Shown piece after piece: positions 12,848 to 40,895 of a stretch of 64,000 nucleotides of DNA. Made by a program: the position numbers and the translations under genes. Below the pieces are notes generated by a model. It did not search any database. It was not told the DNA's origin and saw only the letters and a program-made list of their open reading frames with translations. Source of the stretch: Acidobacteriota bacterium (GTDB taxonomy: Bacteria > Acidobacteriota > Vicinamibacteria > Vicinamibacterales > 2-12-FULL-66-21); assembly GCA_016184105.1 (NCBI GenBank), contig JACPDI010000029.1, positions 7,905-71,904 of the forward strand. Reading direction: 5' to 3'. The stretch's first letter is position 1; every line of letters begins with the position of its first letter.

Positions 12848-13831
12848 ATGCGCATCCTCATCTCCATCTACAGCGACATCTCGACCTGGAACATTCCCGA
12901 CGAAGAAGTTGCGCGGGTGCGGCGGGAGTTCCCGCGCGATGACGTGGTGCACGCGCGGGATGCCGCCGAGACGGTGGCGCTCGCCCGAGAGGCGGACGTG
13001 GCGTACTCGTCGCTGATCCACCGCGACGCGCTGGCTGCCGCCTCGAGGCTCCGATGGGTCCACAGCCCGGCGGCAGGCATCGGCAGCATGCTGTTTCCCG
13101 AGCTGATCGCGAGCCCGGTGATCCTGACCAACTCGCGCGGCCTGCACGGCGACGCGATGGCCGAGCACGTCATCGGGGTCACGATCGCGCTGCTGCGCAA
13201 GCTGCCGGAGGCGTTCGCACACCAGGGGGCGCACCGCTGGGGGCACGAGGCGATGGGCGCGGGGGAGCCGCTGCGCCTCGTCAAGGGATCGACGTTCGGC
13301 GTCATCGGTCTGGGCGCGATCGGGTCGGCGGTGGCGCGGATTGCATCCGCCATGGGCGCCACCGTCGAAGCGATTCGCCGCCATCCCGAGCACGGCGCGC
13401 CCGAGGGGGTCCACGCCATTTACGGGCCCTCGCAGCTCGCCGAACGGCTGCCGCAGTGGGACGTCGTGGTGCTCGCCGCCCCGCACACGCCAGAGACGCG
13501 CGGGCTCATCGGCGCGGCGCAGCTGTCGGTCATGAAACCGGGCGCCGTGCTGGTGAACGTCGGACGCGGCAAGCTCGTGAAGGAGGCAGACCTGGCCGCC
13601 GCGCTCGCTGCCAGGCGCATTCGTGCGGCCGCACTGGACGTCGTGGAGCACGAGCCGCTCGACCCCGCCAGCCCGCTGTGGGATCTGCCGAACGCGCTCA
13701 TCACGCCGCACGTCTCCGGCCTGCGCGCCGACCACTGGCCGCGCGCCACGGATCTCTTCATCGAGAACCTGCGACGATTCCAGGCCGGGCAGCCGCTCCT
13801 CAACGTCGTCGACAAGCGGAGCGGGTACTAG
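12848..13831 (+). CDS. D-isomer-specific 2-hydroxyacid dehydrogenase family protein
   Basis: NAD-binding GVIGLGAIGSAVARIA, VLVNVGRG, and catalytic-region ALDVVEHEPL...ITPHVSG. Confidence 0.85.
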   Translation: MRILISIYSDISTWNIPDEEVARVRREFPRDDVVHARDAAETVALAREADVAYSSLIHRDALAAASRLRWVHSPAAGIGSMLFPELIASPVILTNSRGLHGDAMAEHVIGVTIALLRKLPEAFAHQGAHRWGHEAMGAGEPLRLVKGSTFGVIGLGAIGSAVARIASAMGATVEAIRRHPEHGAPEGVHAIYGPSQLAERLPQWDVVVLAAPHTPETRGLIGAAQLSVMKPGAVLVNVGRGKLVKEADLAAALAARRIRAAALDVVEHEPLDPASPLWDLPNALITPHVSGLRADHWPRATDLFIENLRRFQAGQPLLNVVDKRSGY

Positions 13832-14071
13832 ACGAGAGGTTCTACACGAGAGGTTCTACACGAGAGGTTCTACACGAGAGGTTCTACACGAGAGGTTCTG
13901 CACGAGAGGTTCTGCACGAGAGGTTCTGCACGAGAGGTTCTGCACGAGAGGTTCTGCACGAGAGGTTCTGCCTGCACGAGAGGTTCTAGACGAGAGGTTC
14001 TACACGAGAGGTTCTACACGAGAGGTTCTGCACGAGAGGTTCTACACGAGAGGTTCTGCACGAGAGGTTTT
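13832..14071. repeat. Tandem array A: about 17 copies of a 14-bp unit, ACGAGAGGTTCT(A/G)C
   Basis: Units start at 13832, 13846 ... 13958, then a 4-nt slip (cctgc), then 13976 ... 14060. Two variants (..TAC and ..TGC) occur in blocks. The array starts at the stop codon of the dehydrogenase gene. Confidence 0.95.
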
Positions 14072-14112
14072 GGGACAGCGGACGTGGCGTCGATCGTGCT
14101 TGGGCAAGCGGC

Positions 14113-14505
14113 ATGGCGGTCTCCCAGTTCACGCAACTCATTGCATGGCAGCTCGCGGATCAACTTCGGGCCCAAGTGTTCGCATTTACTGCCAAAGAGC
14201 CCACTGCCAGGGATTTCAGATTCTGCCGCGATATTCGTGCATCCGCGGAATCGGCTCCGTCCAATACTGCTGAAGGATTTGCGCGCTTTCGCCCACTCGA
14301 GTTCCTCTACTTTCTCCGAATCGCTCGGGCATCGCTCGCCGAAACTCAAGATCATCTTCGTTCGGCGCTCCAATCGGACTACATCACACCTGACGGCTTC
14401 ACGGGAATGTGGCGCCTGGGGCGCCGCGCGATCATGGCGAACACGGGGCTGCAGCGGTACCTGACGAGGTGCATCGAAGAAGGCTGGGAGCCGGGGTTCG
14501 ACTGA
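14113..14505 (+). CDS. Four-helix-bundle protein (23S rRNA intervening-sequence protein / DGR Avd family)
   Basis: FTQLIAWQLADQL...RDIRASAESAPSNTAEGFARF...EFLYFLRIARASLAETQDHL is typical of the TIGR02436/PF05635 family. G+C is visibly lower than in the neighbours. Confidence 0.85.
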   Translation: MAVSQFTQLIAWQLADQLRAQVFAFTAKEPTARDFRFCRDIRASAESAPSNTAEGFARFRPLEFLYFLRIARASLAETQDHLRSALQSDYITPDGFTGMWRLGRRAIMANTGLQRYLTRCIEEGWEPGFD

Positions 14506-14526
14506 AACAGACGGTTCGAGACGACG

Positions 14527-15605
14527 GGGTGTCCGGAATTTCGTGTGTGGGGCATAACATGAGGAGTCCATATGCCCCGCAGACGGAAAGCCTTGATGCC
14601 TGACGCGCCGCTGGCGCCCGTCCCCTCGGAAATCCTCGACCAGTTCGTGCGCCAGGGGCCGATCTCCGTGGAGGAGCTTGATGCCGCCGTGCGCCGATTC
14701 AAGAAAGCGATCATCGAGCGCGCGCTGGGCGGCGAGCTGACGCACCACCTCGGGTACGCCCGGTGGCGACAAGCCGGACGACACCGCGAATCATCGAAAT
14801 GGGACCGGCGGCAAGACGGTCCTGACCGATGATGGTCCGCTCCCGATCGATGTGCCGCGCGATCGCGACGGCACCTTTGAGCCGCGGCTGGTCGCGAAAC
14901 ACGAGCGCCGCTTCACGGGGTTCGACGACAAGATCCTGGCGCTGTATGCGGGCGGGATGACGGTGCGAGAAATCCAAGGGTTCCTCGCCGAGATGTACGG
15001 CACGGAGGTCTCGCCCGATCTGATCAGCACGGTGACCGACGGCATCATGGCTGAGGTCACCGCCTGGCAAAGCCGGCCGCTCGGGCGCCTGTATCCGGTC
15101 GTGTTCTTCGACGCGCTGCGGGTGAAGATTCGCGACGAAGCGACGGTCCGGAGCAAGGCGATTTATCTGGCGCTCGCGGTGCTGCCCGATGGCACGCGGG
15201 ACATCCTCGGCCTCTGGATCGAGCAGACCGAAGGCGCCGAATTCTGGATGAAGGTCTTCAGCGATCTCAAGACACGCGGCTGCCAGGACATCCTCATCGC
15301 GGTCACCGATGGGCTCAAAGGGATGAGCGAGGCGCTCGCCGCGGTATTTCCCGAGACGACGCTGCAAACGTGCATCGTGCACCTAATCCGGCACAGTCTG
15401 GATTTCGCGAATTGGAAAGAGCGCAAGCCGATGGCGATGGCGCTGCGGCCCATCTACACGGCGGTGAACGCCGAGGCCGCGAGTGCCGCGCTGGACGAGT
15501 TCGAGCGGGGTCCGTGGGGCCGAACATTCCCGACCGTCGTGGCGTTCTGGCGCCGCGCCTGGACGTCCATCATTCCGTTCTTCGCATTTCCCCTCGACGT
15601 CCGGC
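14527..15605 (+). mobile_element. IS256-family insertion-sequence remnant with a possible left end and no right end
   Basis: It contains the transposase pseudogene. GGGGTGTCCGGAATTTCGTGTGTGGGG, about 45 nt upstream of the ATG, resembles an IS256-type terminal repeat (weak recollection). Homology stops where array B begins. Confidence 0.6.
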
Positions 15606-15613
15606 CGTCTTGA
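14572..15613 (+). pseudogene. IS256-family (mutator-type) transposase, frameshifted near 14760 and 3'-truncated
   Basis: The first part, MPRRRKALMPDAP...ALGGELTHHLGY, is in one frame. The continuation PGGDKPDDTANHRNGTGGKTVLTDDGPLPIDVPRDRDGTFEPRLV...DGLKGMSEAL...FFAFPLDVR is in another. The usual C-terminal roughly 100 aa are absent. Confidence 0.85.
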
Positions 15614-15730
15614 GCCTTTCGTCTTGAGCCTTTCGTCTTGAACCTTTCGTCTTGAACCTTTCGTTGTGAACCTGTTGTCTTGAACCTGTCGTTTTGAACC
15701 TGTCGTTTTGAACCTGTCGTTTTGACCTGC
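15606..15730. repeat. Tandem array B: about 9 copies of a 14-bp unit, CGTCTTGA(G/A)CCTTT drifting to CGTTTTGAACCTGT
   Basis: Units start at 15606, 15620 ... 15718. The reverse complement of the array A unit ((T/C)AGAACCTCTCGTG) matches the B unit TTGAACCTTTCGTC at 11 of 14 positions. The two arrays are therefore inverted relative to each other. Confidence 0.9.
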
Positions 15731-15736
15731 TATTGT
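15708..15736 (+). promoter_or_regulatory. Promoter TTGAAC-N17-(TGc)TATTGT, 7 nt upstream of the ATG
   Basis: The -35 TTGAAC (15708-15713) is part of the last full array B unit. The extended -10 TGCTATTGT is at 15728-15736. The ATG is at 15744. Confidence 0.4.
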
Positions 15737-15743
15737 TCTTCCA

Positions 15744-39739: not shown

Positions 39740-40171
39740 ATGATCCGGCCGCTGCTCATCGGGTTCGCGACGACCCTCAAACACATCTTCCGGAAGCCCA
39801 TTACGGTCCAGTACCCGGACGGGAAGATGCCCATGTTCCCGAAATACCGCGGGAAACAGGTGCTGATGCGGGACGAGAACGATCTGGAGAAGTGCGTCGC
39901 GTGCGGGCTGTGCGCGGTGGCGTGCCCGTCGGACGCGATTTACCTCGAGGCGGCGGAAAACGACGGCACGGTGAAGGCCGGCCCGCGCTACGCCAGCATC
40001 TACCAGATCCACAAGACGCGGTGCATTTTCTGCGGCTACTGCGAGGAAGCCTGCCCGGTTTCCGCCGTGTTCATGGGCAAGGACTACGAGCTGGCGGTGT
40101 ACAGCAAGGACGACTTCATCTGGGACAAGCAGGATCTGCTCGTGCCTCCGTCGGCGGCAAAGACGGCGTAG
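39740..40171 (+). CDS. nuoI: NADH-quinone oxidoreductase subunit I-like 2x[4Fe-4S] ferredoxin
   Basis: FRKPITVQYPDGKMPMFPKYRG, CVACGLCAVACP, CIFCGYCEEACP. Confidence 0.82.
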   Translation: MIRPLLIGFATTLKHIFRKPITVQYPDGKMPMFPKYRGKQVLMRDENDLEKCVACGLCAVACPSDAIYLEAAENDGTVKAGPRYASIYQIHKTRCIFCGYCEEACPVSAVFMGKDYELAVYSKDDFIWDKQDLLVPPSAAKTA

Positions 40172-40206
40172 TGGTCAGTGGCCAGTGATCAGTGGCCAGT
40201 GGTCAG
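40171..40206. repeat. 14-bp tandem repeat TCAGTGGCCAGTG(A/G), about 2.6 copies
   Basis: gtgg|tcagtggccagtga|tcagtggccagtgg|tcag, between the nuoI stop and the metallophosphoesterase start. Confidence 0.85.
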
Positions 40207-40878
40207 CTCGGTGCCCTCGGCGACATCCATAAAGACTGGCCGTCGGTGCGCCGGATCATGGCGCGCCACCCCGAAATTCCCGCCTGGCTCTGCGTCGGCG
40301 ATCTCGGTGACGACGAGGGGATCTACGAGGACGTTCCGGCGCCGCTGTACTGGATCAAAGGCAACAACGAGTGGTTCGATTACCTCGCCGCACACGCGCA
40401 CGATGCGCGCGGGAACCTCGTGTACGTGCCGAACGGCACGCTCGCCGAGGTGGCAGGCGTCCGGGTCGTGGGCGTGGGTGGCACCTTCGCGCCCACGTGG
40501 TATGACGCGGATCCGGCCGCGCTGCCGCATCCCCGGAAGAGGACAATGAAGGCGACGGCGCTCGCCGACAAGCGGCGCCATTTTGTGAAGGCGGAAGTCG
40601 AGGCGGCCAAGGCGCTAGGCCGGCAGATGCGGGTGGACGTCCTGCTCACTCACGAGGCCCCGCGGCCGTTCCGCGTGGGTCGCATGGATGCCGGCAAGGC
40701 GCCGATAAATGAATTGATCGCCGCCATCAGGCCCCGGCTGCATCTGTTCGGCCACCACCACCGGTTCGACGAGCGGGAGGTGGAGAGCACGCGGTCGATC
40801 TGCCTGGACCTGGTTTCGCGTTCGTACCTGCTGCTGGATCCGAGGACGTGGGAATACGAGAAATTGGTGATTTGGTGA
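40192..40878 (+). CDS. Metallophosphoesterase (calcineurin-like)
   Basis: GDIH, VGDLGDD, IKGNNE, LLTHEAP, LFGHHHRF. Confidence 0.8.
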   Translation: MASGQLGALGDIHKDWPSVRRIMARHPEIPAWLCVGDLGDDEGIYEDVPAPLYWIKGNNEWFDYLAAHAHDARGNLVYVPNGTLAEVAGVRVVGVGGTFAPTWYDADPAALPHPRKRTMKATALADKRRHFVKAEVEAAKALGRQMRVDVLLTHEAPRPFRVGRMDAGKAPINELIAAIRPRLHLFGHHHRFDEREVESTRSICLDLVSRSYLLLDPRTWEYEKLVIW

Positions 40879-40895
40879 TTTCGTGATTTCGTAAT
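40864..40895. repeat. 8-bp tandem repeat, 4 copies (TTGGTGAT TTGGTGAT TTCGTGAT TTCGTAAT)
   Basis: Read directly from the sequence. It spans the stop codon of the metallophosphoesterase gene. Confidence 0.85.

Follow-up and report, generated by a model that had tools for sequence, protein, structure and literature searches.

Within a 64,000-nucleotide stretch of an Acidobacteriota bacterium (contig JACPDI010000029.1 of assembly GCA_016184105.1; hereafter the window), two inverted arrays of a 14-bp tandem repeat, A and B, enclose a small gene for a four-helix-bundle (4HB) protein of the PF05635 family and a decayed IS256-family insertion sequence (IS). On balance we favour the reading that the arrays are the repeat arms of a selfish cassette of the type known as intervening sequences (IVSs) of 23S rRNA genes: one PF05635 (S23p/Avd-like) gene bracketed by inverted, lineage-specific arrays. 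Two general observations support this reading. Tandem arrays adjoin 27/27 PF05635 genes that were sampled by protein homology, and are inverted on the two sides in nearly all of them. In addition, the repeat unit tracks the lineage of the gene and not the genome in which it resides.

Two inverted arrays bracket a low-GC segment

Tandem Repeats Finder (TRF) was run on the whole 64 kb. It returned a 14-bp array at 13824–14069 (17.3 copies, 92% matches, score 379) and a second one at 15606–15729 (8.9 copies, score 157), which are the top two tandem repeats of the window by a wide margin. The features of the segment are listed here; A2 is a third array, and L131 and L147 are related loci, all three of which are taken up below.

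13832..14071, + strand: array A, the GGTTC-type arm, 17 tandem units ACGAGAGGTTCT(A/G)C
14072..14112, + strand: spacer from array A to the 4HB start codon, 41 nt, nearly identical in L131
14113..14505, + strand: 4HB gene, PF05635 23S_rRNA_IVP / TIGR02436, intact, 130 aa
14506..14527, + strand: remnant of array A2, GGTTC-type, about 2 units, AACAGACGGTTCGAGACGACGG
14528..15605, + strand: decayed IS256-family IS, left inverted repeat GGTGTCCGGAATTTCGTGTGTGGGG present, right end missing
15606..15729, + strand: array B, the GAACC-type arm, about 9 units, CGTCTTGAGCCTTT drifting to CGTTTTGAACCTGT
15730..15743, + strand: native spacer leading to the ligase ATG, CTGCTATTGTTCTTCCA, still recognisable in L147's empty site and hence marking the right edge of the insertion

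Array A consists of seven copies of ACGAGAGGTTCTAC, seven units ending in TGC, one such unit with a CTGC slip, one unit ending in TAG and a truncated final unit. Its first base lies directly 3′ of the TAG stop codon (13829–13831) of a D-2-hydroxyacid dehydrogenase gene. Array B comprises eight in-register units and one partial unit, and ends 14 nt before the ATG (15744) of an AMP-binding acyl-CoA ligase gene. Units follow one another without a gap, at a start-to-start spacing of 14 nt, and this lack of spacers rules out a CRISPR array. The reverse complement of the A unit, GTAGAACCTCTCGT, matches the rotated B unit, CTTGAACCTTTCGT, at 11/14 positions. The core motif GAACCTNTCGT, with at most one mismatch, occurs 31 times against 2.9 expected; 25 of the 31 occurrences fall inside the arrays, where A has them on the minus strand only and B on the plus strand only. 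The likeness between A and B is too loose for an 11-nt-seed repeat finder, which reported no inverted pair of at least 40 nt in the 9–21 kb region. By direct reading, the unit ACGAGAGGTTCTAC never forms an internal stem of more than 3 bp, and is therefore not a palindrome.

Arrays A and B have G+C contents of 0.53 and 0.46, the 4HB gene one of 0.59 and the IS one of 0.65, compared with 0.69–0.71 in the flanking genes. At third codon positions it is 0.65 in the 4HB gene and 0.90–0.94 in the flanking genes. A gathering-threshold scan of the window against Rfam found no known RNA family and no rRNA, and a window scan for tRNA genes found none.

The 4HB gene matches Pfam PF05635 with E = 4.7e-20 and TIGR02436 with E = 1.2e-17 (64 bits, cut-off 24), and its product matches PDB 2GSC (XCC0516) with E = 6e-7. 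The latter is a solved homopentameric structure from the same family. PF05635 proteins are very common and have no known function outside diversity-generating retroelements. Such a retroelement was ruled out in the window: no reverse transcriptase domain was found among 18 neighbouring open reading frames (ORFs) scanned (10.1–31 kb and three further ORFs), and no template/variable repeat pair in 9–21 kb. Apart from the arrays, the only repeat of at least 40 nt in that region was a weak match of 44 nt in two copies (9363/9702, 73% identity), which lies far from the 4HB gene. PADLOC gave zero matches to defence systems, and a search of a phage collection with the 4HB protein gave no homologue. 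A consensus scan of the spacer between array A and the 4HB gene found no sigma-70-like match, and for this reason transcription of the gene probably comes by read-through from the dehydrogenase gene.

Most of what the initial annotation had stated about the layout was confirmed by these results: about 17 and 9 copies of a 14-bp unit, inversion with 11/14 matching positions, one array starting at the upstream stop codon and the other ending 14 nt before the downstream start codon, exact flanking of a low-GC segment (0.46–0.65 inside, 0.69–0.71 outside), no CRISPR-type spacers, and an Avd/IVS-type 4HB gene.

The segment is absent from the same site in relatives

In three relatives (L147, L148 and L149; ligase identity 86, 77 and 77%) the order M20 peptidase, Rex, MoaC, dehydrogenase, ligase is kept, and the ligase gene directly follows the dehydrogenase gene, as the initial annotation had proposed to check. 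The empty-site spacers of 81, 11 and 184 bp contain neither arrays nor a 4HB gene. The ligase homologues are labelled Vicinamibacterales by their sources. Because the same site lacks the block in all three relatives, the low-GC block is an insertion into a Vicinamibacterales-like genome. Its composition, foreign to that of the flanking genes, points the same way. The final 20 or so bases upstream of the ligase start are recognisable in the filled and in the empty form. Since these bases are common to both forms and the empty spacers are free of arrays, the insertion extends from 13832 to about 15729, with the arrays as its edges.

In the 184-bp spacer of L149 (3816–4000) we noted one unit-like stretch, AGAGGTTCTGC, and degenerate CTCAGAG repeats. 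The stretch could be a decayed remnant, an array seed or a chance similarity.

The dehydrogenase-to-array junction was found again in two independent Logan assemblies and one NCBI assembly, and is identical across L001, L002 and L131.

The intact cassette has three arrays, and IS256 came later

L131, a contig of another assembly, represents the same locus without the IS. Its 4HB protein, P0001, is 99% identical to that of the window, and is likewise 130 aa long, so that a loss of a basic C-terminal tail by the window protein proved to be wrong. The order in L131 is dehydrogenase TAG stop, A (about 8 units), 4HB gene, A2, about 60 bp, B, ligase. Array A2 (802–975; about 12 units of GGTTCAAAACAGAA) directly follows the 4HB stop codon and is oriented like A, and array B lies at 1035–1125, about 60 bp past A2. 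Thus, the intact form of the cassette is A, 4HB gene, A2, about 60 bp and B. Array A varies in copy number between strains, with 17 units in the window and about 8 in L131, a comparison that the initial annotation had suggested.

Because A2 stands about 60 bp before B in the IS-free L131, the original hairpin partner of B is A2 and not A. The alignment of the window with L131 is near perfect up to about 14527, two units into A2, and the left terminal repeat of the IS256 begins there; this two-unit remnant of A2 (14506–14527) had escaped the initial annotation. IS256 landed in A2 at a later time, and a deletion then took the remaining A2 together with the loop and the IS's right end. The facing A and B of the window, described before as a giant inverted repeat, are therefore truly inverted, but they are a leftover of IS insertion and deletion and were not original partners. 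Neither does the IS belong to the cassette content, as had been thought.

The transposase gene is frameshifted (14572–14832 / 14852–15613) and stops at position 329 of the 379 of its profile. It matches Transposase_mut (Pfam) with E = 9e-89, and ORF 14852–15613 covers profile positions 80–329, in agreement with the earlier description of a frameshifted and truncated IS256 transposase. The arrays themselves were ruled out as terminal inverted repeats of IS256, as the IS of the window has its own left repeat inside the block (at about 14528), a related copy in L117 has both of its repeats between the arrays, and the arrays of L131 stand without an IS.

A second case comes from a soil metagenome (L117, 3804–5760), where an IS256-family element lies at the centre of an inverted pair of 18.9 and 13 copies. 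The pair fills the spacer between two co-directional genes from the stop codon of one to the start codon of the next. This IS is 77% identical to that of the window over 1.1 kb and has both terminal repeats. The 8-mers that flank it, CAGGTTGA and CCGGTCGA, match at 6/8 positions and may be a target duplication. This IS256 lineage seems to favour array foldbacks, much as some ISs favour repetitive extragenic palindromic (REP) sequences.

Arrays adjoin PF05635 genes across phyla

We chose sampling by protein homology to avoid the bias of repeat-based searching. The sample consisted of 27 loci with homologues of two query proteins, from metagenomes for Acidobacteriota and from plasmids for Cyanobacteriota, Bacteroidota, Gemmatimonadota and Alphaproteobacteria. 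In the first 17 of these loci, tandem repeats made up 29% of the bases within the 300-bp flanks of the gene and 0.8% elsewhere.

Homologues of the window 4HB protein were mostly found on contigs of 1–3 kb, as expected if assemblies break at the flanking arrays. Arrays stood beside the gene in 8/8 of the metagenomic homologues (L131–L138, 38–99% identity), with units that differed. A homologue of 52% identity has GGTTCCA upstream and GAACCTC downstream, and those of 51% and 38% identity have a 22-bp and a 28/29-bp unit, respectively. L133, L136 and L137/L138 (38–44% identity) carry irregular GGTTC-type and GGAACC-type 7-mers; across three diverged genomes they share one position, with a DUF488 gene on one side and a MacB-type permease gene on the other. 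These loci also share about 40 conserved nucleotides upstream of the ORF (TTGCAGAATTCTCAATGCTGCCTTGCAGAA...).

A tblastn search of complete plasmids located 4HB genes in Nostoc, Anabaena, Trichormus, Calothrix, Scytonema, Pseudanabaena, Geminocystis, Picosynechococcus, Stanieria, Riemerella, Gemmatirosa and Azospirillum. Short arrays, mostly of heptamers, were present at 18/18 of these loci (L139–L146, L150–L159), 0–120 bp from the ORF. At nearly all loci the units on the two sides are reverse complements of each other; examples (upstream/downstream) are AGTAGGG/TCCCTAC, GGGAAAA/CCCTTTTC, TGACAGG/CTGTCAC, GGTTTAA/TAAACCT, TCAGGAG/CTGACTC, AGGAGATA/ATCTCCTA and GAGGACG/GTCTTCT. One Nostoc PCC 7120 copy is an exception, with its upstream side replaced by a transposase gene. 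At the cyanobacterial loci the arrays abut or overlap the ends of the ORF, with gaps of 0–40 bp.

Several array-flanked 4HB genes lie within conserved operons, namely between cas6 and cas4 (type I-D CRISPR-Cas), between cas10/cmr2 and cmr3 (type III-B) and between nrdB and nrdA. The operon-embedded cases are L141 (Anabaena sp. 90 pANA02), L144 (Pseudanabaena galeata), L155 (Picosynechococcus PCC 7003) and L139 (Nostoc edaphicum). The plasmids gamma and alpha of Nostoc PCC 7120 (L150 and L151) encode one and the same 4HB protein, WP_010994075.1; each copy is followed downstream by a (CTTCTGCC)n array, and both adjoin transposase genes.

One member of the sample links these loci to rRNA. On plasmid AZO_p2 of Azospirillum lipoferum 4B (14.3–14.8 kb; L154, 749–1215) a 23S rRNA gene contains a 4HB ORF that had not been annotated, between the inverted heptamers (CAGAGGA/CGGAGGA)n upstream and (CCGTCCT/CTGTCTT)n downstream. 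Judged from a reading of its flanks, which identified the rRNA, L154 is a classical helix-45 23S rRNA IVS with the same architecture.

The repeat unit follows the gene lineage

Paralogues within one genome differ in their units: the two 4HB genes of N. punctiforme have GGGTGTG and TCAGGAG, and those of Nostoc ATCC 53789 have GGGAAAA and TCAGAAG. Orthologues of 72–80% identity in different genomes share their unit, as in the TCAGRAG/T, CTTCTGCC and AAAAGCT/AGCTAAA groups. Among the acidobacterial proteins the GGTTC core is kept down to 30–50% identity over unit lengths of 7, 13 and 14 bp; L134 and L135 have unrelated units. Since paralogues in one genome differ and orthologues across genomes share units, the arrays travel with the gene. 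In a tally made by eye, G outnumbers C in the 5′ arm, whichever strand is read, at 17/22 loci, with the opposite at 0/22.

The 13/14-bp array family has a fixed polarity

A pattern scan of species-representative genomes located the unit in Acidobacteriota metagenome-assembled genomes (MAGs), where one 1.29-Mb contig has three loci with paired inverted arrays at each. A scan of metagenomes yielded 106 stretches, chiefly from soil and rhizosphere. Arrays were called by the spacing of GGTTC or GAACC cores, which resulted in 141 arrays in 111 loci. Neighbouring arrays followed the order GGTTC-type then GAACC-type in 33 cases and the reverse order in 0, with 7 GG and 2 CC pairs; the 33 include near-duplicate loci, and the number of independent pairs is nearer 27. 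Among arrays with at least 1 kb of inner sequence, 52/92 had an inverted partner within 2.5 kb on the inner side. On the outer side this was the case for 0/91. The spacing of the pairs falls into three classes: adjacent (loop of 0–30 bp, about 10 loci, gene-less), about 200 bp, and 450–900 bp.

The arms enclose the 4HB gene in L018, L036, L043, L062, L088 and L115, as they do in the window; in L025, L068, L095 and L100 the gene stands beside an array. In five of these 11 loci the 4HB ORF enters the downstream array and ends at a TGA supplied by the unit. Another wide pair encloses YciH (identified by reading) together with a 4HB gene. L068 and L043 could not be used as a loaded/empty orthologue pair, because their flanks differ on one side. 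Position-specific conservation of the unit is biased by the search pattern and was not used as evidence.

A solitary 15-copy array of CGACAGGCTCAGGA, a unit close to that of array B, is present in L017 (OW818637.1, 4062–4273), with no partner found within 4 kb on either side. Within the window, a heptamer array of AGTGGTC/AGTGGCC/AGTGATC (40170–40206, 5.3 copies) directly follows a TAG stop codon, and an 8-bp array of GGTGATTT/CGTGATTT (3–4 copies) lies at 40864–40892. The two bracket a 228-aa metallophosphoesterase ORF (40192–40878), are not inverted and have no 4HB gene; this ORF is thus a second small gene of the window bracketed by short tandem arrays.

A model of the cassette at the RNA level

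How might such a cassette work? We propose that it would be transcribed together with the host genes. Where arrays abut the start codon, as in cyanobacteria, they must be part of the mRNA. The GGTTC-type and GAACC-type arms may then pair into long imperfect duplexes, with A2:B as a local hairpin and A:B as a stem that would loop out the ORF, similar to the termini of 23S rRNA IVSs, whose stems are cut by RNase III. In predicted RNA folds the arms pair over the ORF in L132 (z = -9.9) and L139 (z = -8.8), and A2 pairs with B in L131 (z = -6.5). An inverted pair reads alike on both strands, so that the host transcript would contain the same stem whichever the direction of the gene, and a strand-independent stem fits the presence of cassettes inside operons. 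The arrays would lengthen and shorten by slippage.

Recognition of the repeated unit is probably the task of the 4HB pentamer. Its studied homologue Avd binds to a specific stem-loop of RNA in which bases are flipped out (bioRxiv 10.1101/2023.10.23.563531). Since, in addition, the unit tracks the gene lineage and its core is kept without compensation between the arms, the unit is probably recognised, most economically by the 4HB protein itself. This indirectly favours the idea, raised in the initial annotation, that the arrays are binding sites.

Several observations weigh against the cassette reading. The protein-based sample is of modest size. We infer the role at the RNA level from analogy and modelled folds. 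In Pseudanabaena (L144) the flanking arrays are direct, with an additional upstream hairpin, and A and A2, which flank the gene at the window locus, are likewise direct and not inverted. A protein hidden Markov model found the 4HB gene in 11/129 loci of the 13/14-bp family, so that most arrays of this family lie away from it, and inverted pairs also surround other small genes (L016, 1268–2372; L030, 2310–2899; L050, 1453–2222). The other enclosed genes are a HAD-type hydrolase and a YjbQ-like protein, both identified by reading translations, and an ORF of 108 aa of unknown kind. No target-site duplication or conserved terminus was found when the outer edges of 21 pairs were examined. Finally, in 11 pairs each arm is homogenised separately; the arms show no mirror-order or compensatory similarity and their variable positions are not kept complementary, which argues against selection on base pairing alone.

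Alternative explanations

Some of these points would fit a foldback-type transposable cassette acting at the DNA level, which we regard as possible but less probable. The arrays would be protein-binding ends and the 4HB protein the recognition factor, acting on the copy that encodes it and, in trans, on foldbacks that lack the gene as well as on pairs around other small genes, as in a family of autonomous and non-autonomous elements. The fixed polarity of the pairs (33 against 0, with partners on the inner side of 52/92 arrays and on the outer side of 0/91) speaks for it, as do the coexistence of loaded, empty and other-cargo pairs and the insertion polymorphism at the window site. The same is true of the 4HB genes inside the unrelated operons cas6/cas4, cas10/cmr3 and nrdB/nrdA, of the identical gene on two PCC 7120 plasmids, and of arms that keep the core and not complementarity. 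Core conservation also counts in its favour at the protein-sampled loci, where GGTTC persists at 30–50% protein identity over 7-, 13- and 14-bp units, but in L025–L130 it is inflated by the search pattern that found those loci. However, the 4HB fold of about 125 aa has no known nuclease or recombinase activity, and neither a target-site duplication nor sharp termini were found in the 21 pairs. The shared syntenic site in the diverged L133, L136 and L137 points to long residence and not to frequent movement.

It is unlikely, in our view, that the arrays are a generic lineage-specific intergenic satellite, similar to REP sequences and bacterial interspersed mosaic elements (BIMEs) or to the short tandemly repeated heptamers (STRR) of cyanobacteria, kept because of some use to the host (mRNA stability, termination or nucleoid proteins, for example), on which 4HB genes and IS256 preferentially landed as unrelated mobile DNAs. 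Arrays do far outnumber 4HB genes in the 13/14-bp family, about 10 adjacent pairs are gene-less, and IS256 relatives sit in array centres twice. Xanthomonas has about 186 GGGAATC arrays, about 70 of them in convergent pairs, with no gene link noted (PMC4692102). Yet a satellite would hardly differ between paralogues of one genome and be shared by orthologues of different genomes. The cyanobacterial arrays abut or overlap the ORF ends and leave no room for separate element ends, and in relatives neither the gene nor the arrays are present at the empty sites. The initial annotation had named random, unpaired occurrence as the mark of a generic satellite; this is half true, as arrays do occur at many gene-less loci, but they pair up with a fixed polarity (33 to 0).

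A local slippage scar around IS256 or an assembly artefact, both considered in the initial annotation, would account for units in blocks with one 4-nt slip and for short-read contigs that break at arrays, but is very improbable given the same arrays in the IS-free L131, the unit family at about 100 metagenomic loci and in Acidobacteriota MAGs, and identical junctions in three independent assemblies.

Comparison with known systems

The cassette reading places the window next to 23S rRNA IVSs with an S23p ORF, as known from Leptospira, Coxiella, Xanthomonas and Brucella; the initial annotation, which knew of no described element of this kind, had thus missed a relative (Azospirillum L154; Coxiella, PMC4990558). 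The gene belongs to the same PF05635/TIGR02436 family, G+C is low, and the ORF is placed between complementary, stem-forming termini. By contrast, the window cassette lies between two protein-coding genes and not in helix 9, 25 or 45 of 23S rRNA, and its arms are 14-bp arrays of 17 and 9 units, in a set of three (A, A2, B), compared with a stem of about 28 bp. rRNA IVSs have long been suspected to be selfish or mobile, and their G+C content is below that of the host. In the Coxiella IVS, which has a terminal stem of 28 bp, tandem GACAGAT heptamers occur at the 5′ RNase III site in a number that varies between strains (PMC4990558).

Heptamer satellites offer a second likeness. The G-rich heptamer arrays of Xanthomonas and Nostoc are intergenic (PMC4692102). 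Like the cassette arrays, these and the STRR have short units, often form convergent inverted pairs, and are conserved in position and variable in length. The window family differs by its unit of 13–14 bp instead of about 7 bp, although related 4HB genes (37–52% identity) carry 7-bp GGTTCCA-type units. Moreover, the heptamer study makes no link to 4HB genes, whereas the sampled arrays flank such genes and their unit tracks the gene lineage (PMC4692102 for the former). The name STRR reportedly goes back to Mazel and colleagues in 1990. We know of no accepted function for the heptamer arrays of cyanobacteria and xanthomonads.

Avd of diversity-generating retroelements is a homologous pentameric 4HB protein that binds structured RNA next to its own gene; the window gene differs in having no reverse transcriptase in the 18 scanned ORFs and no template/variable pair in 9–21 kb. 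REP/BIME sequences and REPINs resemble the arrays in being dispersed, intergenic, hairpin-forming, alternating in orientation and targets of ISs. Unlike them, the cassette unit is not a palindrome, its copies stand head to tail with inversion only between arrays, the associated gene encodes a 4HB protein, and no RAYT gene was seen in the 64 kb covered. Foldback transposons and MITEs (miniature inverted-repeat transposable elements) have long inverted arms of short tandem repeats and exist in empty and cargo forms, as does the cassette, but the arrays have no target-site duplication or defined termini (21 pairs) and no transposase.

Implications

S23p-bearing IVSs and heptamer satellites are each known; what is new here is an IVS-type cassette outside rRNA with 14-bp array arms. 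In the full-text literature we found no link of tandem arrays to 4HB genes beyond the Coxiella remark; most subscription journals were outside this coverage, and an earlier report may exist. If 4HB genes and arrays always co-occur and the unit tracks the gene lineage, each partly explains the other. For annotation this gives a simple rule, namely that satellite arrays, paired and inverted on the two sides of a gene of about 125 codons, indicate an inserted cassette. Such paired arrays are also a likely break point of short-read assemblies.

A bolder proposal, which we consider doubtful, is that 4HB genes and their arrays form a widespread, unrecognised class of mobile elements with the pentameric protein as the only element-encoded factor. 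The 4HB protein would recognise the unit of its own lineage and, with host enzymes, perhaps a reverse transcriptase as for Avd, would mobilise the DNA between cognate arrays, and the arrays would be laid down by a repeat-adding or slippage step. On either side the GGTTC-type (or G-rich) strand always points 5′ to 3′ to the centre, and such a step would account for this. If this were true, rRNA IVSs, the STRR heptamers of cyanobacteria and the heptamer pairs of Xanthomonas would be facets of one system.

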